Shown one piece after another: positions 866-37,016 of a stretch of DNA of 58,193 nt. Location of the stretch: positions 1-58,193 of IMG/VR virus record IMGVR_UViG_3300045988_132327. One strand, 5' to 3'. Both the position numbers and the translations under genes were made by a program. The notes below the pieces were generated by a model that made no database searches, was not told the DNA's origin, and saw only the letters and a list, made by a program, of their open reading frames with translations. The stretch is from a virus (lineage: Duplodnaviria; Heunggongvirae; Uroviricota; Caudoviricetes). Numbering within the stretch: the stretch's first letter is position 1; each line of letters begins with the position of its first letter.

Positions 866-880
866 TTAGTTTTCTAACAT
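866..880 (-). promoter_or_regulatory. operator-like motif ATGTTAGAAAACTAA (reverse strand)
   Basis: identical 15-mer to 14218..14232 and 24853..24867; between ppp and ORF 922. Confidence 0.5.
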
Positions 881-921
881 ATTATTTTACCGCTCGGAAC
901 AAAACAGAGTCGGTATACATT

Positions 922-1917
922 ATGAGTGCAATAATCACACCTCATTTCGTGAACGGAGCTGGTGTGGCTGTCTTTCCGGTAGACAAGCCCACCAGTAACT
1001 ACATTGGCGCAGGTCGCCGTTTCATTATCTCCCCACTTCCGCGTGAACAGGCTGAAAACACGCCAGATGGCGTAGTGGATCTGAACTATTCGCTGGTTGC
1101 CAACCAGTCTCTGAAACCGTTTTTTCAAAGCGAGCGCGTATTTAACGCGTTGGGCGGTGAAGATTCGCTCGTTCATTGGGTAAGTTCCAATATCCACGAT
1201 TGCCAGGCGCACGATAAGCGCGATTGCAGCCACCAGCTAACCACTCATTTCTATAACGGCTCTGCCGTTCGCCTGTGCTGGAAGCATGATGCGGAATACA
1301 TGATGAAGGGGTACAGCAAGCTGGACGACCAGTTATCCCTGAATCGTGCCAACTGGGTTATGAACTGGGCTGCGAGCGAGTTAAAACTACCGCCAGAACG
1401 CGATCTGAGCATGGTTGAACTCACTTTTTGGGCCATTCGCCGGAATCTGAAAGATGAGCTGCCAGATGAAGCCGGGCGCATTGCATTTTGTCAGCCAAAA
1501 ACTGAAATCCCTACCGGTACGCTGAAAGAATCAGATATCACCTGGGAGCACAGTACCCGCGAGCTGGTGGACATAACCGCAGAGCAGATCGTCAACCTGT
1601 CTGTAGATGAGGATTCCGGCCTGCTTTATATGCGCCGACCAAAAGCGGCCCTCGGTAAAAGCCCAGCTTATCTCAGGTTTGTGGTTTCTCGTCCGTGCAT
1701 CGGATGCGGTGGCAAAGTTAACCACCCGTTCATGTACCGCGCCCGCTCGTTAAACGAACACGACCGCTGGGCTGTTCCTCTTTGCGATGACTGCGCCAGA
1801 AGCGCAGAAAACGATGTCCGGGCATGGGAAAAAGCACATGGCATACGCCTTTACGTAGCCGCCAACCAGCTTTTCGACTTCGCCATCGAGCGCGGAGTGA
1901 TCACGTTCAATAACTGA
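922..1917 (+). CDS. hypothetical phage protein, DUF968-like with C-terminal Cys cluster (CIGCGG...CDDC)
   Basis: 331-aa ORF; family assignment from recalled motif pattern only. Confidence 0.45.
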   Translation: MSAIITPHFVNGAGVAVFPVDKPTSNYIGAGRRFIISPLPREQAENTPDGVVDLNYSLVANQSLKPFFQSERVFNALGGEDSLVHWVSSNIHDCQAHDKRDCSHQLTTHFYNGSAVRLCWKHDAEYMMKGYSKLDDQLSLNRANWVMNWAASELKLPPERDLSMVELTFWAIRRNLKDELPDEAGRIAFCQPKTEIPTGTLKESDITWEHSTRELVDITAEQIVNLSVDEDSGLLYMRRPKAALGKSPAYLRFVVSRPCIGCGGKVNHPFMYRARSLNEHDRWAVPLCDDCARSAENDVRAWEKAHGIRLYVAANQLFDFAIERGVITFNN

Positions 1918-1930
1918 TGGGAACAATGCA

Positions 1931-2224
1931 ATGAGTCAAGGTAATGGTGACGGAGCTGCAAAGTGCAGAATCTCCACTTGTTTGATTAATGACAAAAAAA
2001 TAGAACCGTGCGCGGCGTTGGCACAATCCCTGGAGCAGGATGCTGAATACACGACGCGGAAAGGTCTGCTGAAATACAAAATCTATAACCATGAATTAAT
2101 TCATTCACAAGACCTGATCATGCTGCGGTCTGGTGAATTTTCTAAATCACCGATTCGAGTTTCATTTTGCCCGTTCTGTGGTGAAAGTCTGAAAACGTGG
2201 GAAGCGGAGGCAACCAGTGAATAA
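1931..2224 (+). CDS. hypothetical small protein with CPFCG motif
   Basis: 97-aa ORF, packed immediately after upstream gene. Confidence 0.4.
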   Translation: MSQGNGDGAAKCRISTCLINDKKIEPCAALAQSLEQDAEYTTRKGLLKYKIYNHELIHSQDLIMLRSGEFSKSPIRVSFCPFCGESLKTWEAEATSE

Positions 2225-2861
2225 CCGCTTTTACCTGATGTGCTTGCGTGAAACTGTGGGTAATAACGCCTCATTCCATTGCCATAACGGCAATGGTTAC
2301 AGTTCTGATATCGATCGCGCTCATGTTTACACGCTGGAAGAAGCCCAAAAAGCCTGGAATTGTGGGCGAGATATCGATCAGCCTGTTTGCGCGGATAGCG
2401 TGGATGCAATGGCAGTGTGGCACGTTGATTGCCAGTACATCCCTACAGAAAGCCTGATTGAGTCAGATTGCACTGCGTATGTGGCCTACAAAAAAGGTAG
2501 CTGGAACGGCAACGATGTTTACTGGCTTCAACACGGTGGATTGCCAACAGATGACTTCAGTAAAGCGACCATCTTTAGCGTCGCCAACAAAAACGAACCA
2601 GGAATAGTTTGGTTGCCATTTTCCATTGCTGATGCAGCAAAGCGCCGGACGTTCAATATCAATAAATTTAACCGCAGAACAATGGTTCAGGGCGCAGGTT
2701 TGGTCATGCCTGACTGGTTGAAAAAGCAGAACAGAAGAAAGAAGTCGCGAAGCGGGAAGGTGCGTTGGAATTGTCCGCATTGCGGAAAAATCACCTGGCA
2801 GTACAGCCCATATGATTTTGAAGGCTGTCGTGATTACAACTGTGAAGGATGGCGAGAATGA
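2217..2861 (+). CDS. hypothetical Cys-rich protein with C-terminal zinc-ribbon-like CPHCG...CEGW
   Basis: 214-aa ORF overlapping neighbours by a few nt (operon-like packing). Confidence 0.45.
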   Translation: MNNRFYLMCLRETVGNNASFHCHNGNGYSSDIDRAHVYTLEEAQKAWNCGRDIDQPVCADSVDAMAVWHVDCQYIPTESLIESDCTAYVAYKKGSWNGNDVYWLQHGGLPTDDFSKATIFSVANKNEPGIVWLPFSIADAAKRRTFNINKFNRRTMVQGAGLVMPDWLKKQNRRKKSRSGKVRWNCPHCGKITWQYSPYDFEGCRDYNCEGWRE

Positions 2862-3583
2862 CAATTGACTATCAGGTACTGCGTGAGGCGGCAGAAAAGG
2901 CAACACCAGACGAATGGGTCGCATTTATTTCGCCGGGTACTGGTACATATGCGGTGCATACACCCGGTGATAAACGATGTGGAGACGTTATCAAATGGCC
3001 CGGCTTTGATGGACAGGAAAACGCAGAGAATAACGCTCGTTATGTTGCCGCGTTCAACCCAAAGGTTGCACTGGAGCTGCTTGGTGAAATTAAGCGCCTG
3101 GAGGACACAAATATTGATGCTATGTGTCGAATTGCAGAGCTTGAGACTAATCTCGCGGCGCTGGTGGCGGAGAATGCGGGGCTTAAGGCCTTCAAAACCG
3201 CCGTTTATCAGCAGATGGGCGTCGGATGTGATGCTCCTGAATTCTCCATTACGGTAGGTTTGAGTAACTTACGTCGTTTTGCTGACACACTCCACGCCAT
3301 TGAGCGTGAGTTCTTTACCAAAGAGCTACCTGATGAAGAGCACGAAGGCGAAACATTCAATGAATGTCCACTTAGCTGGGGAATGAGCGTCGAACAGTAC
3401 GTTTCCGAGTTTCGCAAATGCCTGGCTGAAGTGCGGGCGCAGGGGGTAGATATGGCTCGTAACGCGATGATTGATTTTGTTGATGGTGAAGTGGGGCCAA
3501 ACAAGAACGTTCCGGGGCTGATTAGAGGCGCAGAGATATGCGTAAGTATTGCTGAACAGCTTCGCAAAGGAGGCGACCAGTGA
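2849..3583 (+). CDS. Ea22-like family protein, paralog 1
   Basis: 244 aa; N-terminal approximately 85 aa near-identical to next ORF (DYQ.LRE.AEKATPDEWVAFIS..GTYAVHTPGD), then coiled-coil-like region. Confidence 0.55.
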   Translation: MARMTIDYQVLREAAEKATPDEWVAFISPGTGTYAVHTPGDKRCGDVIKWPGFDGQENAENNARYVAAFNPKVALELLGEIKRLEDTNIDAMCRIAELETNLAALVAENAGLKAFKTAVYQQMGVGCDAPEFSITVGLSNLRRFADTLHAIEREFFTKELPDEEHEGETFNECPLSWGMSVEQYVSEFRKCLAEVRAQGVDMARNAMIDFVDGEVGPNKNVPGLIRGAEICVSIAEQLRKGGDQ

Positions 3584-4302
3584 GCAAGATTGACTATCAG
3601 GCGCTGCGTGAGATAGCAGAAAAGGCAACACCAGACGAATGGGTCGCATTTATTTCGACGGATACTGGTACTTATGCGGTGCACACGCCCGGTGATGAAC
3701 GATGTGAAGACGTTATCAAATGGACCGGCTTTGATGGACAGAAAAATGCAGAGAACAACGCTCGTTATGTTGCCGCGTTCAACCCAAAGGTTGCTTTGGC
3801 ACTACTGGATGAACGGGAAAGGAACCAGCAATACATCAAATCCCGTGACCAGGAGAACGAGGATATTGCGCTAACGGTTGGGAGGCTGCGCGTTGAGCTG
3901 GAAGGCAAAGACAGCAAAATAGCCAATCTTACCGCCGAACGCGATGCTCTTCGTGAAGGTGAGATGGGCGACGCTAGGCATAGCAACACACGGGCCGCAG
4001 CTGATATCTACTTCCAACTGGTCGAGGAGTGCGAAATTCCTGCTGGCGGATCTCTGGTCGAGTACGTTGACGATATGCGCGAGAAGCTGGAAGCCGCAGA
4101 GAAGCGCATTGCAGAGTTAGAAAGTGGTTCTCAGGCACAAAAGTTAGTTGAAGCAATCATTGTTGCGATAGAAAACGAACAGGAAAGGCTTTTTGATGAA
4201 GATTACCTAATGGATTCGAAAGAATGCATTGCCGTAATTCGTGAAGAAGTAAAGCGATGGAATGATTCCCGTGCCGCTGGCATTCGCATCAAAGGAGAGT
4301 GA
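3580..4302 (+). CDS. Ea22-like family protein, paralog 2
   Basis: 240 aa; shares N-terminal domain with 2849..3583, divergent C-terminus. Confidence 0.55.
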   Translation: MSKIDYQALREIAEKATPDEWVAFISTDTGTYAVHTPGDERCEDVIKWTGFDGQKNAENNARYVAAFNPKVALALLDERERNQQYIKSRDQENEDIALTVGRLRVELEGKDSKIANLTAERDALREGEMGDARHSNTRAAADIYFQLVEECEIPAGGSLVEYVDDMREKLEAAEKRIAELESGSQAQKLVEAIIVAIENEQERLFDEDYLMDSKECIAVIREEVKRWNDSRAAGIRIKGE

Positions 4303-4303
4303 T

Positions 4304-4453
4304 ATGGCTAAGTACATCGTGACTATCGAAGGATTTAATGATTGCAAGGTTGTTGAGTTTGAAGCAGACACGCCAGAGGATGCCGAAGAAATAGGCAGAG
4401 ACATATTCTATGAAGAATGCAACTACGGCGTATCACCTGCTACAGAGGACTAA
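4304..4453 (+). CDS. hypothetical small acidic protein
   Basis: internal ATG of ORF 4262..4453 preceded by aaaggagag SD; 49 aa. Confidence 0.35.
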   Translation: MAKYIVTIEGFNDCKVVEFEADTPEDAEEIGRDIFYEECNYGVSPATED

Positions 4454-4456
4454 CAC

Positions 4457-4816
4457 ATGACCACTTTAACCGACAAAGAACTGATTAAAGAAATCAAAGA
4501 GCGCATAGGCAGCTTGGACGTTCGAGACAATATTGAGCGCCGTGCTTATGAAATCGCACTGGCATCGCTGGAAGCAGAGCCGGTGGCGTGGATGCGTGAT
4601 GACGCAGATGGTCGTGAGTATAACGCTCGCAATGAATTTTCTGGTGGAGGGGGAGGAGTTCCACTCTACGCCACCCCTCCAGCGCCAGTAGTACCGGAAG
4701 AAAAACCAATGCCTAATCCTCTTAGCATGTACGCGGTTGATGCTGTTGCCGCTATTGCAGAGGTGAGAGGCTGGAACGCCTGCCGTGCCGCTATGCTTCA
4801 GGGGAAAGGAGACTGA
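4457..4816 (+). CDS. hypothetical protein sharing IALASLEAEPV motif with 5026..5658
   Basis: 119-aa ORF. Confidence 0.45.
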   Translation: MTTLTDKELIKEIKERIGSLDVRDNIERRAYEIALASLEAEPVAWMRDDADGREYNARNEFSGGGGGVPLYATPPAPVVPEEKPMPNPLSMYAVDAVAAIAEVRGWNACRAAMLQGKGD

Positions 4817-4817
4817 T

Positions 4818-5015
4818 ATGGATAAAAACACCACTGCTTACTGGAATCTGTCACTTGATACCGAATGCCCAAAATGCGGTCACAATTTCGATCTGCTTTG
4901 TGACGCTGATTTCTGGGAGTTTTCTGGAGCTAAACAGGCATGTGAAGAAATAAAAGGTTACGAAACATGCTGTCCAGAATGTAACCATGAATTTAAAACA
5001 GATTTCGTGTATTGA
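4818..5015 (+). CDS. small zinc-ribbon protein (CPKCG...CCPEC)
   Basis: ATG at 4818 preceded by ggag SD; 65 aa. Confidence 0.45.
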   Translation: MDKNTTAYWNLSLDTECPKCGHNFDLLCDADFWEFSGAKQACEEIKGYETCCPECNHEFKTDFVY

Positions 5016-5025
5016 GGCATAACAA

Positions 5026-5658
5026 ATGACCACTATTACCAGAGAACAGGCACAGAAAATTATTGAAGCAGCCGATGAGGTTATTAGTGCGCTTGCCGGA
5101 ACTAACGAGGATGTTCACCCTGGTAGCGATAACATGCTACGCCTGTGGGATGACCTGAATGACCGTTACGCGCCCCCTGAAGTTGTGCGTGAGCTGGCAC
5201 GAATTGCACTGGCATCACTGGAAGCAGAGCCTGTAAGCCAAACTTACAACTTGCCAGAATTAATCGAAGGGATGGAAGTTTCCATTGATGTAAGCACTTG
5301 TGATGCTGATTTAGGTAATCGCTATTTCGGTACCGTCACCGAGGCGTTAGAACTTGATACAGCCAAGAATGGTTACATCCTCCTAGTTCAGGACGCAGAG
5401 CCAAACTTCGATGTAAATGGCAACTCTCCGGTAATTCCGGGCGGTTGGATAAGCTGTAGTGAGCGAATGCCGGATAGCAAAACAGCCGTTCTTGTTGCCA
5501 GGGAGTTTGACAGGAAAGGTGACTGGCGAATGAAATGGGCGACTTACATCCCGGGGCATCCTGACGCTAATGATGGGTGGATCATTCCTGGGGCGTCGTG
5601 GAAACCGTCACACTGGATGCCGCTACCAGAACCGCCGCAGGAGGTTAACCGTGGCTAA
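5026..5658 (+). CDS. DUF551-like phage protein
   Basis: 210 aa; C-terminal Trp-rich motif (PGGWISCSERMPD ... WMPLPEPP) typical of DUF551 as recalled. Confidence 0.5.
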   Translation: MTTITREQAQKIIEAADEVISALAGTNEDVHPGSDNMLRLWDDLNDRYAPPEVVRELARIALASLEAEPVSQTYNLPELIEGMEVSIDVSTCDADLGNRYFGTVTEALELDTAKNGYILLVQDAEPNFDVNGNSPVIPGGWISCSERMPDSKTAVLVAREFDRKGDWRMKWATYIPGHPDANDGWIIPGASWKPSHWMPLPEPPQEVNRG

Positions 5659-5932
5659 CCTTCAACTGGCAGTTAACGGTGAATATTTCGACCAGATGAA
5701 GTCTGGAGAGAAAACGGAAGAGTATCGCTTGTGTAATGACTACTGGAATAAGCGAATTCTGTTCCGCGAGTATGACCGCCTGATTATCACAAAGGGATAT
5801 CCGAAGCGCGATGATTCCAGCCGCAGAATAGACGTCCCGTATGACGGATATGAAATCAAGACAATCACGCATCCCCACTTCGGCGATAAACCGGTAAAGG
5901 TTTACGCGATAAAGGTAAATATCAATGGCTAA
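5651..5932 (+). CDS. hypothetical small protein, possibly ASCH/PUA-like
   Basis: GTG at 5651 preceded by ggagg SD; 93 aa; fold assignment is a guess. Confidence 0.35.
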   Translation: MANLQLAVNGEYFDQMKSGEKTEEYRLCNDYWNKRILFREYDRLIITKGYPKRDDSSRRIDVPYDGYEIKTITHPHFGDKPVKVYAIKVNING

Positions 5933-6329
5933 ATTTCAAAGAAATATTATTTTTCTGGCAATGTTATCTGCCTGTCATTTATCTCATGCATCGGTTATTG
6001 CTGCGGGAGCTGCGGCAACCGCTGTAATTAGCGCCTCAGCCGCCAGCGAGCATGAGCAACGTACTGCAATCAATGCATCTGCCAATACCACCACGGTATC
6101 AGTAACACAAGAAAAGCCGAATATCGGATTTGTTACTTGTGGCAAGCGATATGGTGAAATGGTTGGCTCTCTTGGTTGCGTAATGTGGCAAGACGACGAC
6201 CGAACAGAAATTCCGTGGAACTCATGGCCTGGCTACATTCTTGGTAAGAAGCTGCCCACCAGCTATGAAGTAAATGCTATTTCGTTCGACCAATATAACA
6301 GTGTTGCAACGGTCTATTTCTCTTATTAA
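5925..6329 (+). CDS. putative secreted protein
   Basis: 134 aa; N-terminal hydrophobic signal-like segment. Confidence 0.45.
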   Translation: MAKFQRNIIFLAMLSACHLSHASVIAAGAAATAVISASAASEHEQRTAINASANTTTVSVTQEKPNIGFVTCGKRYGEMVGSLGCVMWQDDDRTEIPWNSWPGYILGKKLPTSYEVNAISFDQYNSVATVYFSY

Positions 6330-6341
6330 CACGGAGTAATT

Positions 6342-7710: not shown

Positions 7711-7720
7711 TCACCATGCT

Positions 7721-8022: not shown

Positions 8023-8061
8023 TGCTGGTGGCATCTTTGTTACAAAGAGGAACACCTGCTC

Positions 8062-10767: not shown

Positions 10768-10773
10768 GTTAAA

Positions 10774-12832: not shown

Positions 12833-13861
12833 TTACGAATCCATCAAGCGGCTATTAGCCCCCACAGACACACCGCCACGGCGCAGATACCGCATAAGTG
12901 TTTCCGGTTTCTTCCAGGTTCCTTCCTGCATGATCTCCACCATAGACACCTGCTTTTCAGCCATATCGATAGCGGCCCCGACACGAGCACTATGCCCGGT
13001 CCACGTCCGGTATCTCCCTTTGTTTGGCGCGGCATCCCTTTTATTCAGCAACACCCAGGCGTCGCTGAATATTTTCTCCATTGCAGGTGCAGTAAGGGGA
13101 GTTGTCGTAATCCTGGCTTTATTGCTACGGTGTATCGGCGGGAACAGCACCGCGTCAGGATGTTCACGAAGCCCGGAAACATCCAGCCAGTCATTCAGCA
13201 CTGCGGTAGTGCGACGGGAAAGCACCTTATCAAGCCCGGCGGCGGTCGTTATTGTCTTCGTGTGTGAAATATGTAGCGTGACAGTGTCACCTGTTTGGTC
13301 CAGATCTCCTACACGAATACGCGAGATTTCCGACATACGCATCAGCGTATTGTATGCAACAAAGAGAAAAGCCCGGTTGCGCAGGTCCACCAGCCGTTCT
13401 GACTTGGACAACAGGACGTCGAGCAGTTTCAGATCGTCCCACCGCAGCGGTATAGCCTGGCCTGTTCGTTCGCCTTTTTCAGTTGCCGCTTCGCGCCGGA
13501 TGCGCCGCATAGCCAGAGAAACACTTTTATCATCCGAAAGTGGCGGAAGGCCACAATGCGAAAGCAGCATGTTCAGCATGGCGTAGTGCTTATCAATGGT
13601 GGTCGAAGCCAGATCGGCATCATGCAGCTGAAGAAAATACTCGCGGGCCATTTCTGGTGAGATCGGAAACCAGGCAAGCTGGCGAGCGTGACACCAGCGC
13701 GCCCAGGAATGAAACACCAACCGGAGGTCGCGCAGAGTATTCGGCGCATAAGCCCCCTGGTCATTCATGAACCGCATAAAGTTTTCTGCGGCTTCCTGGT
13801 ACTCTTTGCCAATGTTGCGCAGAAAACCACCGGAACTGCCAGAGATAATTAATTCACTCAT
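12833..13861 (-). CDS. cre: Cre-like tyrosine site-specific recombinase
   Basis: 342 aa; multiple blocks matching P1 Cre as recalled (VSLAMRRIRRE, RNRAFLFVAYNTLMRMSEISRIRVGDL, WTGHSARVGAA, catalytic Tyr in MRYL). Confidence 0.9.
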   Translation of the reverse strand: MSELIISGSSGGFLRNIGKEYQEAAENFMRFMNDQGAYAPNTLRDLRLVFHSWARWCHARQLAWFPISPEMAREYFLQLHDADLASTTIDKHYAMLNMLLSHCGLPPLSDDKSVSLAMRRIRREAATEKGERTGQAIPLRWDDLKLLDVLLSKSERLVDLRNRAFLFVAYNTLMRMSEISRIRVGDLDQTGDTVTLHISHTKTITTAAGLDKVLSRRTTAVLNDWLDVSGLREHPDAVLFPPIHRSNKARITTTPLTAPAMEKIFSDAWVLLNKRDAAPNKGRYRTWTGHSARVGAAIDMAEKQVSMVEIMQEGTWKKPETLMRYLRRGGVSVGANSRLMDS

Positions 13862-14012
13862 GAAACTATTTCACCTCTATATACAGATGACGCTACGCGA
13901 AAAATATAAAAATGACAGGGTAGCTATAAGTTAATTTTCAAAATACAAGCCTTTGATTCGAGGCACGTATTTTCAGTGATGTCAACACTGTTCATCTACA
14001 CATGATTATAGC

Positions 14013-14046
14013 CTAACTTTAAATAATGCCAATTATCTAAAGTTAG
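14013..14046. other. lox-like recombination site CTAACTTTAAATA-ATGCCAAT-TATCTAAAGTTAG (13-8-13)
   Basis: 13-bp inverted arms (12/13 complementary) around an asymmetric 8-bp spacer, same geometry as loxP; about 150 bp upstream of cre. Confidence 0.55.
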
Positions 14047-14053
14047 AAATTTA
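14039..14053 (+). promoter_or_regulatory. operator-like motif AAGTTAGAAATTTAG (weaker copy)
   Basis: overlaps right arm of lox-like site. Confidence 0.35.
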
Positions 14054-14217
14054 GGAATTTTTTTCCTTTCCGCGCAGATGGGCAATGCATTGCTGGTGTG
14101 GGCTTTAAGTTATGCCTGGCAGTTTTTAAGCAGAATTTTCTAAATTGGATGATAAAAAAATGCATCTTGATCCTTTACTCACCCTGTTATTCGGCATAGA
14201 TTTGTCATAGTAATTTT

Positions 14218-14232
14218 ATGTTAGAAAACTAA
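14218..14232 (+). promoter_or_regulatory. operator-like motif ATGTTAGAAAACTAA
   Basis: identical 15-mer also at 866..880 and 24853..24867 (reverse strand); 15 nt upstream of ORF 14247. Confidence 0.5.
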
Positions 14233-14246
14233 ATCGAGTAGGAATA

Positions 14247-15284
14247 ATGAGTAAGAAGTCGATCGAGAAAGAGTACAAACGGTTCCTGCAAACCGCTGAA
14301 CGGTGGAAAGAGCTGGTGGTCGCAAACTCTGTTTTCCATGATACCAGTTATTCCGGCGAGGAATTCCGCCATGTTGCACTAACACATGATCAGAATGTGC
14401 TAGAAGAAGCTGAAAAGTGCCTCACAGAATGGAAAGCCTTTGTTGACTTGTGCCGTAACGCTGACGGCAAAGCGTCTAACATTGTTGAGTCTGTATATTC
14501 TCCGATCCCATTCATTATCGAGGACACAAATCAAAGCACGCATATTGTTGTGCAAAGCGCGACCACCACCCGCTCATTTACGCGCGAAAATCTGCTCAAA
14601 AAATATGATGCAATTATAAAGAAAAGCCTGAAAAACAAGATATTTTCGCAGATTGTTGGTGCACTTGAAGAAGAGCGCCGTTTTTTCGCATCAGAACCTG
14701 AAGGGGAAGTTTACCGGGCGCGCAAAGATGGATACACAGATGTAGTGCTTACAACAAACATTGAAGGCAGCAATGCTCTGTCACGATTCAGGGTAGGCGC
14801 ACACGGAGCCTTAGTGTTCGCAAAACTTCCGAACACCACAGTGCCCGTTGTTAATAATGTCGGCGAACGTCGCAGCATTACTATTTATTCTGGGGTTGAG
14901 TCGATACCTTGCGGCCTGCTTGGTGACTTTAGTCTCTATCGCGTTCGCGATCTGGAGAAACACCAACCAAGCTATGTTGCGAAGTCATACATCTTGCGAA
15001 ACATCGACATCCGCAATGAGAGCTTAAAGAACAAATCAGCCAAAATGCTTGAGGAAGCCGATCCGGCTATTCGCCATATCATTGAGCGTAAAATACAGAC
15101 AGCACGCGAAGCGATGGCGAGACTGAATAAAATGGATCTGGAGTTGTTAGACGTAATGATGACATCCGGAGATGACCTGACAGGCATAAAACTGACAGAC
15201 GCGCGGAAAAGATACGGTAAAACCATAGAAGAACGTTACGGGTTCACTTTCTCCCAAACACAGCACGCCGCTAAACTCTGGTAA
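14247..15284 (+). CDS. hypothetical protein; positional candidate for C1-like immunity repressor
   Basis: 345 aa; convergent with pacB and divergent from cre across an operator-rich spacer; no recognisable domain. Confidence 0.45.
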   Translation: MSKKSIEKEYKRFLQTAERWKELVVANSVFHDTSYSGEEFRHVALTHDQNVLEEAEKCLTEWKAFVDLCRNADGKASNIVESVYSPIPFIIEDTNQSTHIVVQSATTTRSFTRENLLKKYDAIIKKSLKNKIFSQIVGALEEERRFFASEPEGEVYRARKDGYTDVVLTTNIEGSNALSRFRVGAHGALVFAKLPNTTVPVVNNVGERRSITIYSGVESIPCGLLGDFSLYRVRDLEKHQPSYVAKSYILRNIDIRNESLKNKSAKMLEEADPAIRHIIERKIQTAREAMARLNKMDLELLDVMMTSGDDLTGIKLTDARKRYGKTIEERYGFTFSQTQHAAKLW

Positions 15285-16864: not shown

Positions 16865-18228
16865 TAGTCGTCCTCCGGCGGTTCTATCGCGATATCATCA
16901 TCTCCGGCGTCATATCCTGCGTCTGATGCATCATAATCACCGTAAATTTCAGCCGTAGCCGAAGGGTCAATATCCAACTCTTCGTCGTTGGCCTCGAATT
17001 CCCCAGCCTTACGCTCGCCATTGTGGTCGTAATCTCCGCACCCCAGATCTTCAACAATGGTTGCCACATCCGCCCGGCGCTCTGCCAGCCATTGCGGATG
17101 GTTAGCCTGAAGCGATGCAAACTCCTTCGCTTCTTTGTCCAGCTGTTCATCATCAACATCATTGATGTCAGAAACTGGAGGCTCGAGAAGAGTGATAGCT
17201 TTCGCCGCGCGCGCCGCGAGGATAGCCGGGACACTGACACCCTGACGCTCGATGTATTCAGCAACACCGATATCATCCAGCTCCTCGCGCTCACGCATAC
17301 GTATAGCGGCGGCGATAACTCTGGCTGCGCGTGCGTCAGCGCCAATGCGATATTCAATCTCTTTGCCACGCTGTTCGGCCTGTAGGCGTGCTAATTCGAG
17401 TTTTTCTCTGGCCTCGGCCTCTCTGAATGCTTGCTGGCGAGCACCCTGACGAAGTTTTTCATCACCCTGTCGCAGCTTTTGTTCGGACTGATATATCGCT
17501 GCCAACCTACTGATAAAATCGTTCATGTAGTAGGCCGCGTCACTGATTAGACCGAGCAGTCGCTGCCCAGGGTGCATTCCTTCTGGCTGCTGATCACCCA
17601 GGGCGTCTATCTCCGCCTGTAGGCGTTCGGCCTCCTGATCAACAATGCTTTGGTACTGAAGTGCGCGTTCTTGCGCCATTTGAATTGCTAACCGCAGGTG
17701 CTCTTCTGCGCCGTTCTTCATCATGTCGCGAGCCACACTCGTAGTGGGCAACGTGGCACGCTGCACAGCACCGCCAGGGATCATTGCTGAAGATCCCTCG
17801 GTTTTTGAAGCGCATTTATCTTCGGCGGGGATCATTTTCGCCATTTTTTCGCGCAATGATCTCCTGACAGATTCTTTTATCTCATTGTTATTATTGGTGT
17901 TATTGTCATGATCCGAAGTTTTCTTTCTTGGCATACTTCGGAAAGAACCTGCACCCTGCGAATTGTCAATTTCTGTAAATTTTGTTTTTTCTGCACCCTC
18001 TTCCAGCTTTTTTGTTGCTCTTCCCGCCCGTTTTTTTTCAGGTGATTTGGTGCTTTTTTTTGTTGTCTTTACCTGCGACCGCACCTCATTTTTTTTCATA
18101 TTGAGATGCTTTCTGGCTGTATTGAAGCTAAGGCCATGCTCCTCACAGTATTCCTTTACAGTGATCCCTTTTTCTTCACGCAACGCTATAAAGCGGGCGC
18201 GGTGCTCCTCCCAATTAACCAGACTCAT
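16864..18228 (-). CDS. pacA: terminase small subunit, PacA-like
   Basis: 454 aa; N-terminal HTH-like region; directly upstream of and overlapping pacB. Confidence 0.7.
   Translation of the reverse strand: MSLVNWEEHRARFIALREEKGITVKEYCEEHGLSFNTARKHLNMKKNEVRSQVKTTKKSTKSPEKKRAGRATKKLEEGAEKTKFTEIDNSQGAGSFRSMPRKKTSDHDNNTNNNNEIKESVRRSLREKMAKMIPAEDKCASKTEGSSAMIPGGAVQRATLPTTSVARDMMKNGAEEHLRLAIQMAQERALQYQSIVDQEAERLQAEIDALGDQQPEGMHPGQRLLGLISDAAYYMNDFISRLAAIYQSEQKLRQGDEKLRQGARQQAFREAEAREKLELARLQAEQRGKEIEYRIGADARAARVIAAAIRMREREELDDIGVAEYIERQGVSVPAILAARAAKAITLLEPPVSDINDVDDEQLDKEAKEFASLQANHPQWLAERRADVATIVEDLGCGDYDHNGERKAGEFEANDEELDIDPSATAEIYGDYDASDAGYDAGDDDIAIEPPEDD
17779..17913. other. candidate pac site (GATC cluster within pacA)
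   Basis: five GATC in 135 bp, four in TGATC context; P1 pac lies within pacA and is made of TGATCA/G hexamers (recalled). Confidence 0.4.
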
Positions 18229-18617
18229 AAAGCAACACCACGCTTTTTAACGGCGGCATTCCACAGCTTATTCGCCATGTCCACCAGCTCTCGTTGCTCT
18301 TTTCGCGCCTGTTCGACTGATTTCCTGCTACAGTTTTTAACCAGTAAGCTACCGTATTCAGGCGTGCGCCCGCGCACCTTGAACTGATATCCGTTCAGGC
18401 CATGCAACCAGTATTTCCGTGGGTAAACACGATCATCAAGCTCACAAATAGCTCGGCTTGACCGCACAAAATGCCGAATGATGTTGGTTACACTTACGCG
18501 TGAAACATGAAGGTGAGGATATTTTTCTTTAGCTAGAGTGGTGATTTCGGTGACTGTCAGATAGCAGTCAGCCCTAATCATGATATCCGCAATTTCTGCG
18601 CTGCTGATATGCTCCAT
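18225..18617 (-). CDS. lpa: putative late-promoter activator, Lpa-like
   Basis: 130 aa, immediately upstream of pacA as in P1; assignment positional. Confidence 0.4.
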   Translation of the reverse strand: MEHISSAEIADIMIRADCYLTVTEITTLAKEKYPHLHVSRVSVTNIIRHFVRSSRAICELDDRVYPRKYWLHGLNGYQFKVRGRTPEYGSLLVKNCSRKSVEQARKEQRELVDMANKLWNAAVKKRGVAL

Positions 18618-18694
18618 TAATCCCCCAGGCAGGAAATGACCGAGGGGATGATAATGAGAATGTTATTTCTGTATAGACTGGCAAAAAGTTGGTT

Positions 18695-18709
18695 ATATTA
18701 GAAAATTAA
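18695..18709 (+). promoter_or_regulatory. operator-like motif ATATTAGAAAATTAA (weaker copy)
   Basis: intergenic, upstream region of lpa-like gene. Confidence 0.3.
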
Positions 18710-18725
18710 TTCCATTCATCTAACA

Positions 18726-32800: not shown

Positions 32801-33654
32801 AGGAAGGTTTCCGGGTGTTTACGCAATACCCATACGTCCACCACGGTATCTGTACCGGATTCGCTGAACGTACCGGAAGGCATACGATGTGCGCCCAAAA
32901 ATTCCGCTTTACGGCTGACTTTATCGCGCAATTTTTTATATTTCGTACCATCGGTCATGCCATTTGGCACCACCAATACGATAAGCCCACCAGGCTTAAC
33001 CTTGTCGATCGTGCGCAGCACAAAGTAATTGCCAACGTTCTTCTCGTTTGCATATGCCGGATCAAGCCCGGCAACGCCGGAACGCCCTTCACCAAACGGT
33101 ACGTTACCAACAGCGTGGTCATACATTGCATCTTTCGCCGCCAGCGCCTCAAACGCCCCGATATTCACATCGTCTTCCGGGTGCAAAAGCTGGTTTATTC
33201 GACCAGAAATCGGAGACAGTTCGGCGCTGGTCATTATCATGCCCTGCCGTTTTGTCTCCTGGAAAATACCTGTGCCCGCTGATGGTTCCAGTACGTGCCC
33301 GCCATCAATACCGTAGTCAGCAAACAGATCCCATATACCTTCAGCCATAAACTGTGGCGTGTAGTATTCGTATTGGCTGCCCTCACCATCTGTCAGGCCG
33401 CCTTCACCGGTATACCCGGCAAGAATCTGACGTTGTTCGTCAGTTAATTTCGCCCCATCGAAGCCGGGCGGAAGGGAATTAAGAAGATTTACTGCGGCAT
33501 TATTTGCTGCCCGGCGTGTTTTCTGAATACTGACGCCATCGGCTTTCCTGACGCCAAAGGTCGCAACAGCACGTAATTTATGCAACCGACTAACAATTTC
33601 AATCAGTTCGCCTAAGCTGGAGGCTTCACTGATTGAATGAAGTAGTTTGTCCAA
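26818..33654 (-). CDS. darB: DarB-like giant N6-adenine methyltransferase / SF2 helicase fusion (antirestriction)
   Basis: 2278 aa; MTase motifs LEPSAGTGIF and NVPFGE; helicase Walker A GFGTGLGKTT and DEGH box; size matches P1 DarB (about 2255 aa, recalled). Confidence 0.8.
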   Translation of the reverse strand: MDKLLHSISEASSLGELIEIVSRLHKLRAVATFGVRKADGVSIQKTRRAANNAAVNLLNSLPPGFDGAKLTDEQRQILAGYTGEGGLTDGEGSQYEYYTPQFMAEGIWDLFADYGIDGGHVLEPSAGTGIFQETKRQGMIMTSAELSPISGRINQLLHPEDDVNIGAFEALAAKDAMYDHAVGNVPFGEGRSGVAGLDPAYANEKNVGNYFVLRTIDKVKPGGLIVLVVPNGMTDGTKYKKLRDKVSRKAEFLGAHRMPSGTFSESGTDTVVDVWVLRKHPETFLEMIPDTDDSTLKSANVLWDTFLKGKWFTTEGKRFVYGDMERTSFRNTLVVKKDGRVSNESMKTALSRRFDSRINWDLLGVTTQAWQGAKVGDKRLVGGIWHEFDGLKWVKDTTTKSSALDVSRYGVSTFGDLQIAFQSTNGILALSWDQISAIASDYPSVVSDEVAAMIRFAGKQREKDRERVMRGALIGQLINKALDLRNLGVNVDDKLADASRLAAAEVAKYGPPHAIKLNGLAEAGAKNWMTFTGNVKQDGSTSDLLAGRLDVTDGAAGIDFTRPEQVIAHLFSDVALNPITLGDFREAFAGELPEDDDAALEYLAKFDDIAIDGYGCLLPMDRATSGDIATKTALLVGWRDASTGEQKANFERQLAKIEEKRIFTPLNKVTVNLNARWLDRRLIKEFLAEQGYDEFKYTEPDLKVVDGILVSPDDYEGKDGVFTGYQLRTVNGKNGNEFKKANNKDGFLNQLENYLNGVKPRGQNANEYLDKIAQLEVSFNDWLRTHPQADQIAREYNDAFNGFIPFTHSDAPLGLEGLSGKRIPLTYQNEEVRRLSEDGRGIMGFGTGLGKTTTALALEAYNFETGRTKRTCIVVPKAVYQNWYHEAQSFYSADAFANMMFIGLDEVRDDSGNILTAPVLDENGEPRLDSNGQPLTRNVVKESASAVIVQRMNMIPSSNWRTVIMTKEQFASIPLREKTIEENSQQAVFNAVEMGRLDLASGKHRDAQKKNKIKDQAANTGTTKKQNIPYFEDMNFDSVIADEGHNYRNSFNAGREAGQLAYLPNPAVSKMARDMAVKAAYMMKRNNGRGVVMLTATPLVNSPIDAFNMLSTVIPQEEWMRMGIITPDDFVRVFGKTATVQVQKISGEVEEKQGLVGFQNLDGLRGIFHRWTTLKTAADVGATVKIPDIIENTLQIPMTGEQETAYEELRKRAQELSRNDELTVDENGHITNDKPDDFIFSIIRDMDKVAIDPDLYASAITFQFPVELADQVKAIADALPKVAGGKVADDVDEAEEDGAGGLVSTRTSKVVKTAFSEHPTHVEIRASIELEAEILKAIAAAGIDMQQVSHPIPPKYAALIENLREGLKNGKQIVFIDEKAQHQKLRRIIASALQMPEQEIGIINATTVSQAGGIKLKKVNKPTEPTPNKNGEYKEGAWETYYSKLAQYEDYLSAKNDAGLEGMEGIAADYNEGRTRIIICNKKAEVGINLHIGTTDIHHLTLPWTPASIDQRNGRGARVGSPQEKVNVHYYCGKGTFDDFRLDTLKRKKDWIKMVMTSDMSEIANGDADDADERAIMLAANPEERRAIMARQAQEREERLKLKAQREANNALDIYLKAANAAGKDIGMMETELKSAMEQIEYYQRNLDDLIKAGTNRNGQKYALEQLSSYRKRARVLRFAITRAKDADTIMKRSRGDVERAIKSGVLDISIDVIQNPQEYMRTDKNILLHKGSYYRAVIDDRETTAIVRVEKIDGEKAQYLCRIAWLDRASRYARAPGSIVTLPFDSVIEAVTFEEGVAESRATAARGVQCHQLSTILTRDQFYDAIRNGVMNVIAGKPGNAWGGGSAIKYWAYRTDDGQIALSSTYDGMIGQKIGRTSDIAPEQWIYPDINNEALKREVAKIQASDNPLNIVDGEGFLQALYGYDYIQGMQAWGAQATMDDVAQEFENWMAGRGLSGRSLNKVTSEDILSLFRKPSGEGLESFWRTVLAYRLFQGRMKAFSNIDDIERMFNQVKIAKIKAKIEKTRSALVAWRDALFEQYKSLSDADGWAALEQLANNGVDGAKLAIVQADNPLESPAAQWIKVGAVINAFDEKHISKDDFADAVSVNRLVEMATRRARELKDGDYVNELPDALKSATWQDYVSLKNGGATESEIAKRLEQAESKREEQAAVAEARADEAANDDYIIVVNDKPIRAKARVRGRWWSVSEDVGAVYLIADQPGSSTIRNAKDAIKKIGGRFWNFEANPVADVNFDRPAWMVSTRYSVDELRKIIADAA

Positions 33655-33805
33655 AGGATTTCCCCCTCTAAACCGTAAAAAATTCCGCTATGCGGTACGG
33701 TTGAGAGGGTATGGAGAATGTTATTTTCAGGGGGACGATACTACCGTCAAAATCACATACTCCCCATAGTTTGCCTACTTATTAACCCATGACCGGGGGA
33801 AAAAT

Positions 33806-34291
33806 ATGGCAAACATTGAACCTCGCTGGCTAATTGAAGCCCGTAAGCACATTGGCCTGACTGAAATAAAAGGCGCTAAACACAACCCTGAAATCGTTCA
33901 GTTCTGGCGCGACATCAAGCGCGGCGGAATTAAAGACGATGAAACGCCGTGGTGCGCAGCATTTGTCGGTGCAATGCTGGAACGTGTAGGCATCCGCTCA
34001 ACAAGATTTGAGTCGGCAAAATCCTATCTGGATTGGGGCGAGAAATTAGATACACCGGCATACGGATGTATCGTTGTATTTACCCGCGTAGGCGGTGGGC
34101 ACGTAGGCTTCGTTGTCGGACGCCGCGCCAATGGCGATCTGCTTGTCTTGGGTGGGAACCAGGGGGATGCGGTAAATATTCGCGCATTCCCAACATCAAG
34201 AGTGTCTGGCTATCGCTGGCCTGCTGGCGAACCACGCAATACCGCTCTGTTACCAGTCGGAGACGCAGCAACCTCAACTAATGAGGCATGA
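33806..34291 (+). CDS. CHAP/NlpC-P60-like peptidoglycan hydrolase (TIGR02594-like)
   Basis: 161 aa; Cys (PWCAAF) and His (GGGHVGF) catalytic-like motifs. Confidence 0.55.
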   Translation: MANIEPRWLIEARKHIGLTEIKGAKHNPEIVQFWRDIKRGGIKDDETPWCAAFVGAMLERVGIRSTRFESAKSYLDWGEKLDTPAYGCIVVFTRVGGGHVGFVVGRRANGDLLVLGGNQGDAVNIRAFPTSRVSGYRWPAGEPRNTALLPVGDAATSTNEA

Positions 34292-34315
34292 AAAAAGCCC
34301 CGGCCTGGCCGGGGC
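34291..34315 (-). terminator. hairpin terminator between convergent genes
   Basis: gccccggcc-tg-gccggggc with U-run on minus-strand side. Confidence 0.5.
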
Positions 34316-34323
34316 ATCACGCT

Positions 34324-34524
34324 TCAAGTCACGATCCAATCATTACCGACTATATCAGCCGTCGATAAATCAACTTCCCGGATCTGGAGTCCATTAATAC
34401 AAAACCATCCGGTAGTAGAGTAATTATCAGGCCAGGCCCATACACCAACACTCCATGCTTTACGGCGGCACACTTCAGCCTGTCCTTCCCTGATTTTTTT
34501 TACCGCCTGCATGATGTCCATCAC
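34324..34524 (-). CDS. small DUF2829-like protein
   Basis: 66 aa; AVKKIREGQAEVCRRKAWS...W...DW pattern. Confidence 0.35.
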   Translation of the reverse strand: MMDIMQAVKKIREGQAEVCRRKAWSVGVWAWPDNYSTTGWFCINGLQIREVDLSTADIVGNDWIVT

Positions 34525-35228
34525 TCACCTCCCCAACCGATCACCTGGAATTGCCCCATTTTGGGGTGATACCAGCGTTTTCCTCGGTGTTCAGCCTCCG
34601 ACATCATCCGGTTAAAAGCATTCATGAAGGGAGATAAGGCCACGATGGAACGACGCGACAATACCCCCTCTGGAGTTAAAAACTCATGCGTATCGGTGGG
34701 AATCCGGTAAGCGTTGACCAGGTTTCGGCATTTGGCTTCAGTCAGGCCACATTTCGCCGCCAGCTGGCGGTAGCCAATGTAGCCTTCCGGAATATTGCCT
34801 TTCTTGATTTGCTCGAGTGTTTCAGCGACCTGGCTAACCTTTGACTCAACAGCATGAAGCCGCTTTTGCTGCTGAACTGCATTTGCAGCCATTGCGGCGA
34901 TCATCTCTATTTCGGTCAACGGCTGGCGTACTTGTTCTTCCAGTTCGCGCCAGCGGTCCACCAGCCGGGCGGTGAATTCCGGAGAGAGCTGCGCGACGAC
35001 AATAATGCTGTCTCGTTTGCCTTGCTCGCCTTCGAAGACGTAAGCCTCGACACTACGGCGTAGTCCTAAGTTATTGATTTTTTCGAAAACCTGCAATGCA
35101 GGAAGTTGAATAACTCCAGATTTAGCCAGGCGCTCTATTGATATTTTTACGTTATCCGGGCGACTTCCCACCAGTTCCGCGATCTCAATGCTGGTCATTG
35201 ATGGCTTTTCAAGAATGCAGATATCCAT
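34521..35228 (-). CDS. Rha-family phage regulatory protein / antirepressor-like
   Basis: ATG at 35228 sharing one nt with upstream TGA; N-terminal MTSIEIAELVG pRha-type segment. Confidence 0.55.
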   Translation of the reverse strand: MDICILEKPSMTSIEIAELVGSRPDNVKISIERLAKSGVIQLPALQVFEKINNLGLRRSVEAYVFEGEQGKRDSIIVVAQLSPEFTARLVDRWRELEEQVRQPLTEIEMIAAMAANAVQQQKRLHAVESKVSQVAETLEQIKKGNIPEGYIGYRQLAAKCGLTEAKCRNLVNAYRIPTDTHEFLTPEGVLSRRSIVALSPFMNAFNRMMSEAEHRGKRWYHPKMGQFQVIGWGGE

Positions 35229-35650
35229 CAGTGTGCCTCCGCAATTCCGGGATTGGTAATATTGCGATACCAAGGATTAGTGTTTGGTTGTGATGAAGTA
35301 GAGAAACGGCCAGTCAGGACGCCATGTTGATCAGGGATCAGAGAACGGGCTTCTTTTTCAGTTGCGGCAATTGCGAAGTGATCGCAGTGTTTTTGCAGGG
35401 AGTGGAAACGCCAGATAAATTCCGGGCGCGAGCAAGGATTGGCATTAACCATAGTTACGGCCTCATTCGTAGGTTTAACAACCTGCGCCCCGCTGCTAAA
35501 CGGGTGGCAGGACGTGACGGGGTTAGCAGACTGGCACGAATGAAACCAGCAGGCCGAAGCCTCCCCATCACGCCCCACCATAATTCGGGCGTAACGTGGT
35601 TTTACGGACACAAAAATACCGCAATATCGGATATCTGCGGTTGTCCGCAT
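35228..35650 (-). CDS. hypothetical Cys-rich protein
   Basis: 140-aa ORF translationally coupled to Rha-like gene. Confidence 0.4.
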   Translation of the reverse strand: MRTTADIRYCGIFVSVKPRYARIMVGRDGEASACWFHSCQSANPVTSCHPFSSGAQVVKPTNEAVTMVNANPCSRPEFIWRFHSLQKHCDHFAIAATEKEARSLIPDQHGVLTGRFSTSSQPNTNPWYRNITNPGIAEAH

Positions 35651-35798
35651 TCGTATTCAGGCTGCTAAACCCGGTCGCAGAATTTGCTACGACGACATGA
35701 ATATAAGCCTGAAAACATGGAAGATCAACTAAAAATTTCAGCAATGGATGACTTCAGTCGATGATGCAGATCATACATTCCGATTTAGAAACAGCAAA

Positions 35799-35813
35799 TT
35801 AATTTTCTAACAC
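35799..35813 (-). promoter_or_regulatory. operator-like motif GTGTTAGAAAATTAA (reverse strand)
   Basis: about 150 nt upstream of 35228..35650 start. Confidence 0.45.
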
Positions 35814-35866
35814 AAATTATTGAGCGAGCATTTTCCGATCATTGGGATGTTTTGTAGACGCACAGG

Positions 35867-36829
35867 TCATCCCCTAAAGCCAGCCGGGATTGACCAATCC
35901 TCACGGTCAAATTCAGACCGATAGCCACGCTGTTTCATCAGGTCAAAGGCTTCACCAATGGTTGCACACCCCTGGGAGCCAGAATAATCCATTGAGAAAT
36001 CCAGGACACTGGATTGTTTAGGCTTATTCACTGCGGTAGCTGCACTACGTATCCATGCAAATTTTTTTGCCAGCTTTTCAGCGGTACGATACAGAGCCTG
36101 CCGTTTTGCGTGCCCCTCGTCTGAACGACGCTTTGCAGCTCTCGCTTTTGCCGCCGCCAGGCAGTGGTTGGTATGTTCTTCCCTGATTACTGGTTTTTTA
36201 TCCAGTAATCCATTATCCGCTTGGGAACTATCTGCTGGTGAAGCCTTTGGCTGAACCGCGCATGATCTTTCTCTTCTTTTGTCTATAGAGTGACTCTTAT
36301 TTTCTATTGGCTGTTCATTTTGAACATGGGGGGACTTGTTCAATTTGAACAGGGGGTTCCCAGTTTCAAAAAAATACCGAACCTTTGAAATCAACTGCTT
36401 AACCAGTTTTGTGGCGTTCGCAAATTTGATGCCCTGCTTACCCCCTATCTCCATTGCTACATGAATGAAGTGGAGAAATTGTGTTGTAAACCGGTATACG
36501 TTACACACCTGAGCATTGTTATTCGCTACCTGATGTTGCTTAACAAGCATTCCGCACTTCGTCGCTTCAGCAAATGCCCGGCGCACAGTAGAAATACTGC
36601 GTCCTGTAATCTCGGACATATCAGCATATGAGCGACGGATCATGTATTCATCGGTAGCTCCTGCCAGGTTGGCGAACTCGGCAATAATGGCGCTATGTGA
36701 AGGGGAAAGAAAACCGCTATGACGAGCAAAAAAACTCAACTGATGACCTTTGATTTTTTTGTGGTATTCAGTGTTGTTTTTATACTCAGAAGTGTTGAAA
36801 GTTACTGAAATTGAATTTAAAATATTCAC
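35867..36829 (-). CDS. putative RepL-like replication/regulatory protein
   Basis: 320 aa; winged-helix-like segment; internal tandem palindromes resemble an origin; assignment tentative. Confidence 0.4.
   Translation of the reverse strand: MNILNSISVTFNTSEYKNNTEYHKKIKGHQLSFFARHSGFLSPSHSAIIAEFANLAGATDEYMIRRSYADMSEITGRSISTVRRAFAEATKCGMLVKQHQVANNNAQVCNVYRFTTQFLHFIHVAMEIGGKQGIKFANATKLVKQLISKVRYFFETGNPLFKLNKSPHVQNEQPIENKSHSIDKRRERSCAVQPKASPADSSQADNGLLDKKPVIREEHTNHCLAAAKARAAKRRSDEGHAKRQALYRTAEKLAKKFAWIRSAATAVNKPKQSSVLDFSMDYSGSQGCATIGEAFDLMKQRGYRSEFDREDWSIPAGFRG
36311..36355. repeat. two tandem 15-bp palindromes TGTTCAnTTTGAACA each followed by G5, inside the RepL-like ORF
   Basis: 36311..36325 and 36336..36350, 25-bp periodicity. 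Confidence 0.6.
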
Positions 36830-36891
36830 CAGATAGTTCCGTGAAAAAATCTATCTACCGTATAAATCTATGCCAGTGGATTTATACACCC

Positions 36892-36925
36892 AAAAGCCGC
36901 TTCTCAGCGGCTTTTGCTTTTTTTG
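36892..36925. terminator. hairpin terminator, stronger on plus strand
   Basis: aaaagccgc-ttctca-gcggctttt then gcTTTTTTTgg on plus strand; only a short U-run on minus. Confidence 0.5.
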
Positions 36926-37001
36926 GCAATCGCTACCGGAGCAGTGACCGCGATCCTACTCGATCACATCGGACAGGATCAACAGTGTATATAAATACAC
37001 T

Positions 37002-37016
37002 ATGTTAGAAATTTAA
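37002..37016 (+). promoter_or_regulatory. operator-like motif ATGTTAGAAATTTAA
   Basis: intergenic between pro-like and RepL-like genes. Confidence 0.45.

Follow-up and report, generated by a model that had tools for sequence, protein, structure and literature searches.

Dispersed asymmetric sites in a D6-like phage-plasmid as the probable operator set of a diverged C1-type immunity repressor

Results

The c1 locus

The DNA analysed here is a stretch of 58,193 nt, positions 1 to 58,193 of the IMG/VR virus record IMGVR_UViG_3300045988_132327. This whole stretch is called the window and all coordinates follow its numbering. It represents a D6-like, P1-related phage-plasmid: over pacAB-c1-dre it is 90-92% identical to Escherichia phage D6, and this region matches hundreds of plasmid records at 93-97% identity, many of them from E. 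coli and Shigella. A short asymmetric motif is scattered through its non-coding DNA and, with a probability of about 80%, we read it as the operator of the element's own C1 homologue; all site readings were obtained by sequence comparison. The relatives used were D6 and four metagenomic loci, L005, L006, L007 and L011 (C1 44-53% identical). The genes and sites around c1, whose order is as in D6 and P1, are the following.

12833-13861: dre, recombinase gene
14014-14045 (+): rox, the Dre target (TAACTTTAAATAATGCCAATTATCTAAAGTTA, 32 bp), outside the operator set; conserved as a block throughout the five relatives, and labelled rox in the D6 records
14132-14146 (-): degenerate second candidate c1 operator (AATTTAGAAAATTCT), divergent to the first; perfect core at the same place in L005, L006 and L007
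14174-14202 (+): predicted c1 promoter, TTTACT-17-TAGATT, between both c1 operators; TTTACT-17-TAAATT in D6, L005 and L006
14218-14232 (+): candidate operator just 5' of c1 (ATGTTAGAAAACTAA), at about +9 to +23 of the predicted promoter Pc1; matches the pattern and the position weight matrix (PWM)
14247-15284 (+): c1 homologue, 345 amino acids, the proposed motif binder; 89.6% identity to D6 C1
15356-18228 (-): pacA-pacB

An earlier note on this DNA had proposed that the open reading frame (ORF) 14247-15284, found in the repressor position, encodes a C1-type protein. The product is indeed a syntenic and distant C1 homologue: BLASTP aligned it with P1 C1 collinearly over residues 7-237 (20% identity, 239 aligned columns, E 6e-8). 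A tblastn search with the window C1 at E<=1e-5 recovered D6 only, so that the relationship to P1 is distant. All the C1 homologues carry the precomputed family PF27008, Phage_P7_repressor_C1. The Lpa protein of the window (18225-18617) is 31% identical to P1 Lpa.

The dispersed motif

The strict pattern RTGTTAGAAAAYTAA occurs four times in the window against 0.00 expected in shuffles, and ATGTTAGAAAACTAA is found seven times at <=2 mismatches (0.16 expected) and 12 times at <=3 mismatches (1.78 expected). Three copies, at 866(-), 14218(+) and 24853(-), are identical 15-mers, which the earlier note had held not to be a product of chance; the exact copies were recovered and shuffles gave essentially none. 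Only four copies fit the consensus of that note as written. The 15-mer RTGTTAGAAAAYTAA is mostly preceded by a T and its core is TGTTAGAAAA.

A 17-column PWM was built from the sites and both strands of the window were scanned. Ten sites score 21.4-27.6 (866-, 12817+, 14218+, 18695+, 23448-, 23604-, 24853-, 25896-, 35799- and 37002+); the background reaches at most 11.2, with several of those matches within genes, and a variant at 25950- is intermediate at 14.3. Eleven copies had been claimed initially, ten of which are strong (PWM >21). The remaining one, 14039-14053 (AAAGTTAGAAATTTA), scores 11.2, no better than in-gene matches; it overlaps the right arm of rox, D6 does not have GTTAGAA there, and it was rejected as an operator and assigned to rox. 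Four degenerate partner half-sites absent from that list were identified at 849-863(+), 14132-14146(-), 18712-18726(-) and 35782-35796(+). At rox itself, the right arm differs by one substitution between the window (ATTATCTAAAGTTA) and D6 (ATTATTTAAAGTTA), and a near-consensus sigma-70 promoter, TTGGCA-16-TATAAT (14005-14032, minus strand), points toward dre with its -35 hexamer within the rox spacer.

All ten strong sites lie outside credible coding sequence, and the non-coding share of the window is only about 8% on a greedy ORF map. The copies had been described as intergenic, one of them possibly at the 5' end of a gene, and as present in both orientations; both statements agree with the present data, since the site at 25896 is at the 5' end of a pmgM-like gene and strong sites are found on the plus and minus strands. 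The genome scan that had been named as a check likewise indicates that the motif is not equally frequent in coding DNA. In the late structural region, 37.0-58.2 kb, the PWM scan of both strands detected no motif site. With ten strong sites and weaker partner sites in the window and about 19 sites in D6, on both strands and all non-coding, the motif is almost certainly a real, selected regulatory element.

Among the window copies T-GTTAGAAA (positions 2 and 4-10) never changes, nine of ten have a G at position 3 and the 3' tail varies. A tally of 32 sites from the whole clade, compiled from separate scan outputs, gave the same picture: positions 2-10 show essentially no variation, unlike the 3' half, with a tail reading AAYTAA in the window and AAATAA or AAACAA in L005 and L006. 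This pattern bears on the idea that the motif is bound by a host factor, for example a MarR-type, SlyA-like dimer on a TTAG-N4-CTAA dyad. The consensus of SlyA is TTAGCAAGCTAA, and the most frequent form of the motif, TTAGAAAACTAA, does contain a TTAG/CTAA dyad. However, the CTAA half varies (only 6 of 32 clade sites have C at position 12 and the relatives mostly have AAATAA or AAACAA), whereas the 5' TGTTAGAAAA is invariant, the flanking T-R-T-G is conserved though it lies outside the dyad, and the distribution of the sites follows the P1 C1 regulon. A host factor is consequently a highly improbable binder, and a C1 operator is favoured.

Positions of the sites compared with the P1 operators

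P1 has 22 dispersed asymmetric 17-bp C1 operators, and RepL and Lpa are among the controlled products (PMC8546580). The C1 operators annotated in its GenBank record are Oref, Omat, Ossb, Oc4, OrepL, Orlf, Odmt, Obanab, O26, Oppp, OpmgRa/b, OpmgT, Olpa and Oc1a-e. The other candidate operators of the window are listed below.

849-863 (+): left, weaker half of a bivalent pdcB operator (GCGTTAGAATATTGA); TTAGA-N16-TCTAA at 852; D6 pair 80707-80740
866-880 (-): right half of the same bivalent site, 5' of a pdcB-like DUF968 gene (922-1917); D6 80725-80740, L007 619-633
12817-12831 (+): between the dre stop and the orf2-orf3-dut operon; D6 89946, L005 8419, L006 8402, L007 8459
18695-18709 (+): 5' of lpa, 78-92 nt before the lpa start; P1 Olpa equivalent
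18712-18726 (-): inverted partner half-site of the lpa operator (GTGTTAGATGAATGG); TTAGA-N16-TCTAA at 18698
23448-23462 (-): second tRNA/tci operator, about 95 nt downstream of the promoter 23585-23557; D6 8913, L005 16571
23604-23618 (-): just 5' of the sigma-70-like promoter TTGATT-17-TAGAAT (23585-23557) toward the tRNA/tci genes; P1 Obanab equivalent
24853-24867 (-): directly 5' of pmgS, a scaffold-like gene; P1 OpmgRa/b control pmgR-pmgS; L005 site on the opposite strand
25896-25910 (-): at the 5' end of the pmgM-like VRR-NUC gene; P1 O26 and Oppp flank pmgL and pmgM
25950-25964 (-): variant site (ATTTTACAAATCTAA) overlapping the -35 of a TTTACA-16-TG-TATTAT promoter; PWM 14.3; in D6; operator status uncertain
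35782-35796 (+): inverted partner half-site (GATTTAGAAACAGCA) within the c4 promoter spacer; TTAGA-N16-TCTAA at 35785
35799-35813 (-): heading the c4-icd-ant (immI) operon; P1 Oc4 equivalent, same layout in P1
37002-37016 (+): 5' of repL (35867-36829); P1 OrepL equivalent (controls kilA-repL); D6 copy 22465-22480

The positions match those of P1 at Oc1 (14218, 14132), Olpa (18695), OrepL (37002), Oc4 (35799) and Oban (23604, 23448), and the sites at pmgS and pmgM (24853, 25896/25950) correspond to OpmgRa/b, O26 and Oppp. A scan of the whole D6 genome revealed further copies at mat/simB, ref, hrdC-dmt (bivalent), a second icd-antirepressor region, pdcB (bivalent), orf52/capsid and downstream of dre, among which P1 Omat, Oref and Odmt have their positional counterparts. 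At mat, D6 combines a motif copy with a late-promoter box, and P1 mat is annotated with the same dual control. This site-by-site correspondence, which comes from the comparison of annotated positions, is the strongest argument for identifying the sites as C1 operators.

The words themselves are different. No match to the P1 operator ATTGCTCTAATAAATTT was found at <=3 mismatches in the window, and none to the D6-type motif at <=2 mismatches in 91.5 kb of P1, which places the element outside the P1/P7 specificity group. The immunity specificity distinct from P1 that the earlier note had suggested, and more generally its proposal of a diverged C1 operator set, are thus upheld by C1 homology and synteny, the P1 operator positions, a core kept in the relatives and the mutual absence of the two operator types. 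Two finer correspondences were weighed. The pdcB site was rejected as an orthologue of P1 OpmgT, since its gene is a PdcB homologue (38% identity) and not PmgT. A core common with P1 was also considered, as TTATTAGAGCA (the reverse complement of the P1 operator) and TGTTAGAAAA both contain T.TTAGA; the orientations at orthologous sites are only partly consistent and the common core is unproven.

Promoter context of the candidate operators

The candidate c1 operators flank the predicted c1 promoter. The distance within the pair is 83-85 bp in D6, L005, L006 and the window (83 bp in the window, 84 bp in L005 and in L006) but 96 bp in L007, and TGTTAGAAAA at the 14218-type position is invariant in D6, L005, L006 and L007. 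In P1, C1 autoregulation involves looping between Oc1 sites.

The complement of the lpa operator gives a -35-like TTCTAA, and a conserved extended -10, TGC-YAGTCT, follows after 17 bp. In P1, Olpa is about as far from lpa and overlaps the Plpa -35 hexamer. Most of the five relatives share the block TTTTTGCYAGTCT (18675-18690, minus strand), which is located just downstream of the lpa operator and is read as a putative extended -10 (TGn-YAGTCT). The c4 operator at 35799 abuts a predicted promoter, TTGCTG-16-TATGAT (35797-35770), and lies about 100 nt before the a1b1 targets and the C4 antisense RNA that Rfam identified at 35654-35706(-) and 35500-35585(-), respectively, upstream of the icd/antirepressor genes. 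The presence of these Rfam elements indicates a P1-type immI RNA switch.

The longest ORF of the pmgM-like gene, 25453-25947(-), offers only TTG starts and no ribosome-binding site, and D6 is annotated alike. Its first 17 codons or so cover both the operator 25896-25910 and a predicted -10 (25935-25940), and the start codon of the L006 pmgM orthologue abuts the motif. P1 Obanab heads a tRNA-tci-ban operon; in the window four tRNA genes (Met-CAT, Ser-TGA, Thr-TGT and Arg-TCT) were found at 20147-22380, all on the minus strand. The D6 record has Ser, Thr and Asn tRNAs on the other strand relative to pmgS, so that close relatives do not have the same tRNA cassette. A perfect 7-4-7 palindrome, AGTGTAT-ATAA-ATACACT (36984-37001), abuts the operator at 37002.

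The proximity to promoters could also mean that the motif is core promoter architecture of early genes, with TTAGAA/TTCTAA as a -35-like and TAAYAT/TAANTT as a -10-like hexamer kept for RNA polymerase. At lpa, pdcB, c4 and orf2, plausible -35 or -10 hexamers are indeed formed by parts of the motif or of its complement. The position with respect to the best promoter candidates nevertheless varies, from 5' of the -35 (23604) to about +9 to +23 (c1) and about +95 (23448), both orientations are used at orthologous sites, and conservation of the 10-bp core is much tighter than is usual for sigma-70 hexamers. This explanation is very unlikely by comparison with a repressor-binding site.

Three of the candidate operators have a bivalent geometry. 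TTAGA-N16-TCTAA occurs three times in the window (852-882, 18698-18728 and 35785-35815), only at the pdcB, lpa and c4 operators. The spacing is N=16 in 3/3 cases against about 0.02 expected per spacing, the inverted cores being exactly 21 bp apart, and the same spacing is seen at D6 hrdC (64114-64147) and L011 lpa (5054-5083). In P1, by contrast, bivalent operators consist of two overlapping 17-mers with an 11-bp offset.

Conservation in the relatives

The exact 10-mer TGTTAGAAAA is kept at orthologous non-coding places in L005, L006, L007 and L011 while the surrounding DNA has diverged. Across the relatives these places are downstream of the recombinase gene, twice 5' of c1, and 5' of lpa, pmgS, pmgM and pdcB. 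At the pmgS site of L005 the motif is on the opposite strand, suggesting that its function is independent of orientation, as suits an operator and not a promoter element.

A more distant locus, L010, encodes a C1 homologue that is 30% identical. Between its integrase gene and c1, a 14-7-14 inverted repeat was noticed at 1451-1485 (GTAACATTACATTC / GAATGTAATCTTAC), which may be the lox/rox-type site of that lineage.

A probable separate class of late promoters

The earlier note had offered as an alternative that the motif is a late-promoter element recognised with the Lpa-like activator. Some copies do precede genes with morphogenetic names (pmgS, pmgM) and one is near lpa. However, a different motif was found at the late operons: AAATMACANNCT, a 12-mer followed after 4-5 nt by a -10-like hexamer, has seven matches in the window against 0.27 expected.

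18657-18668 (-), 33715-33726 (-), 33750-33761 (+), 39765-39776 (-), 43884-43895 (-), 47663-47674 (-) and 54681-54692 (-): copies of AAATMACANNCT

It is always on the strand of the downstream gene, these being lpa-pacAB, darB, a hydrolase gene, prt/pro, ddrB, lydA-dar and the R-S tail fibre genes. D6 contains nine copies, including those 5' of mat, prt, lydA, R and pmgB-sit, which are the positions of P1 LPmat, LPpro, LPdar, LPs and LPsit. From its sequence and placement, AAATMACANNCT probably marks the Lpa-dependent late promoters of the D6 lineage. The box differs from AAGTGACTT of P1, and the P1 late box AAGTGACTT-N4-TANNAT is not enriched in the window (three matches versus 4.2 expected).

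The Lpa-dependent late promoters of P1 have a 9-bp box at -22 and a -10. A fixed orientation to the late operon and a box followed by a -10 describe AAATMACANNCT and do not describe the GTTAGAA motif. The latter is bidirectional and independent of orientation, missing from the late structural region at 37-58 kb, and precedes c1, c4 and repL; moreover, P1 pmgR/S and pmgL/M are themselves under C1 operators. The late operons thus carry an oriented element of their own, and the chance that the GTTAGAA motif is the Lpa element is close to negligible. The identification of this motif with the C1 operator is preferred.

Structure model of C1

C1 was modelled with AlphaFold2 on a 9-sequence alignment (mean predicted local distance difference test score, pLDDT, 85). 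The model comprises an alpha/beta region (about residues 1-232, the part that can be aligned with P1 C1) and a C-terminal helical region. Its only significant neighbours in the PDB are Tus-Ter complexes, with template modelling scores (TM-scores) of only 0.35-0.41 for a model from nine sequences. A structure search of BFVD with the C1 model gave no significant match, and no sequence similarity between C1 and Tus was detected, either by hhalign (probability 0.3%) or by a PDB profile search. The invariant arginines R41, R113, R157, R159 and R182 are located on or at the ends of predicted beta-strands, and three of them, R41, R157 and R159, recur in P1 C1.

The commonest form of the operator, TATGTT-AGAA-AACTAA(A), can be set beside TerB, TATGTT-GT-AACTAAA: both flanks are common and the centre has 4 nt versus 2 nt (865-881, 14217-14233 and 24852-24868). 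This likeness could be a coincidence or the reflection of a Tus-like fold. Tus is a monomer which clamps an asymmetric site, and such a mode of binding would fit the isolated asymmetric operators found here. That C1-family repressors are Tus-fold monomers clamping asymmetric sites through inter-domain beta-strands, with a Ter-like D6-type operator, is a tentative suggestion of the model which we consider rather doubtful; the Tus-like fold and the Ter resemblance are leads and not findings.

Discussion

The choice of C1 as the binder has to be weighed against several observations, which all count against it to some degree. C1 has no recognisable classical DNA-binding motif in its sequence and no Pfam match in a local scan. 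As C1 diverges within the clade, the core does not change with it, so that the pairing of repressor and operator rests on co-occurrence and position. In the 4 kb of DNA flanking the C1 homologue of L010, no repeated or informative motif was found. A promoter search at pmgS and repL gave nothing convincing, several other promoter assignments are weak matches, and a terminator-like hairpin (about 36889-36912) lies between the operator at 37002 and the repL start. Two accessory modulators of the P1 system were not detected either: no ORF longer than 40 amino acids lies wholly between rox and c1, where P1 Coi has 69 amino acids, and the 86-amino-acid ORF at 26084-26344(-), in the P1 lxc position after darB-ulx, has no similarity to Lxc. 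Since no Coi or Lxc homologue was detected, the circuit differs from that of P1, and Coi and Lxc are accessory rather than core features of ImmC. Lxc was likewise undetected in a D6-like plasmid (PMC6799933).

Another phage regulator could be the binder instead, namely the helix-turn-helix (HTH) protein encoded at 40223-40486 or the winged HTH, Rha-like protein at 34521-35273. Both have HTH-type signatures, whereas C1 has no classical DNA-binding domain by sequence, and the motif is found together with the D6-type gene set as a whole and not with C1 specifically. On the other hand, the sites reproduce the P1 C1 operator positions, including the autoregulatory ones at c1, and dimers of XRE- or Rha-type HTH proteins normally bind dyad-symmetric sites, whereas the conservation here is asymmetric (positions 2-10 invariant). 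The Rha-like protein is moreover encoded in an operon headed by a motif site and annotated as an antirepressor in D6, and the 87-amino-acid HTH protein has no link to immunity. The latter was also examined as a homologue of Hxr and rejected, as it has no similarity to P1 Hxr. A regulator other than C1 therefore seems unlikely, and C1 remains the favoured binder.

Given C1 as the binder, the following scheme can be proposed, in which the role of C1, its stoichiometry, the promoter assignments and looping are inferred. In the plasmid-prophage state, C1 would occupy each asymmetric site, probably as a monomer like P1 C1. At putative sigma-70 promoters the sites abut or overlap the -35, the spacer or the +1 region, and binding would shut off lpa (the late-gene activator), repL (lytic replication), c4-icd-ant (the immI antirepressor operon) and the tRNA/tci operon, as well as pmgS, pmgM, pdcB and the orf2-dut operon. 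C1 would regulate its own synthesis via the two divergent sites, about 84 bp or eight helical turns apart, around its promoter, where looping is possible. At the three promoters with bivalent operators, the inverted cores 21 bp apart would present two sites on the same face of the helix. When C1 activity is lost, Lpa would be released and would act at the separate late promoters (AAATMACANNCT and -10) of the head, tail, lysis and dar operons.

The D6-type operator set is an expected feature that was apparently unannotated before. Both D6 GenBank records annotate rox and cix and neither an operator nor a late promoter, and the motif is not mentioned in the searchable literature, although the text of the D6 genome paper may already describe it. 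If the assignment is correct, the wiring of a regulon can persist while its operator word is fully replaced. D6-like plasmid prophages are frequent among E. coli, Shigella and Salmonella, and the pair of consensus sequences would provide a regulatory map of the lineage. The operator consensus predicts heteroimmunity to P1/P7 and allows automatic annotation of C1 regulons, and the repressor and its operator could serve as orthogonal parts beside Dre/rox, already exploited from the same locus. A Tus-like fold, if confirmed, would explain the long-known monomeric and asymmetric recognition by C1 repressors; it would also imply a common ancestry of a phage immunity repressor and a bacterial replication-terminator protein, and C1-operator complexes might then be polar barriers.

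Three known systems can be compared with the one described here. With E. coli Tus-Ter, in which the site is asymmetric and of 23 bp, the asymmetry of the sites is common to both proteins; the role proposed for C1 is, however, transcriptional repression at many sites, and nothing suggests replication-fork arrest. The second system is D6 (MF356679 / AY753669), along with the D6-like plasmid prophages of E. coli and Salmonella: D6 has its gene order and all motif positions in common with the window and is 90-92% identical to it over immC. Its C1 is 89.6% identical, and the tRNA set and its orientation differ.

In the P1/P7 ImmC system the repressor is homologous to this C1 and is encoded in the same slot (pacB - c1 - recombinase site), and there are many dispersed, asymmetric, orientation-independent sites of 15-17 bp, in a mixture of monovalent and bivalent operators. 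The controlled units are the same, c1, lpa, repL, c4-icd-ant, a tRNA/ban-type operon, pmgR/S and pmgL/M, to which D6 adds mat, ref and dmt, and in both a class of Lpa-dependent late promoters, putative in the window, comes next in the circuit. The differences from P1 concern the operator sequences, which are unrelated by consensus search, and C1 itself, which has 345 amino acids here and 283 in P1, with about 20% identity and an extra C-terminal helical region in the window protein. Judged by its sequences, the system is a deeply diverged lineage of the P1 ImmC operator system, with the same wiring and a different operator word.

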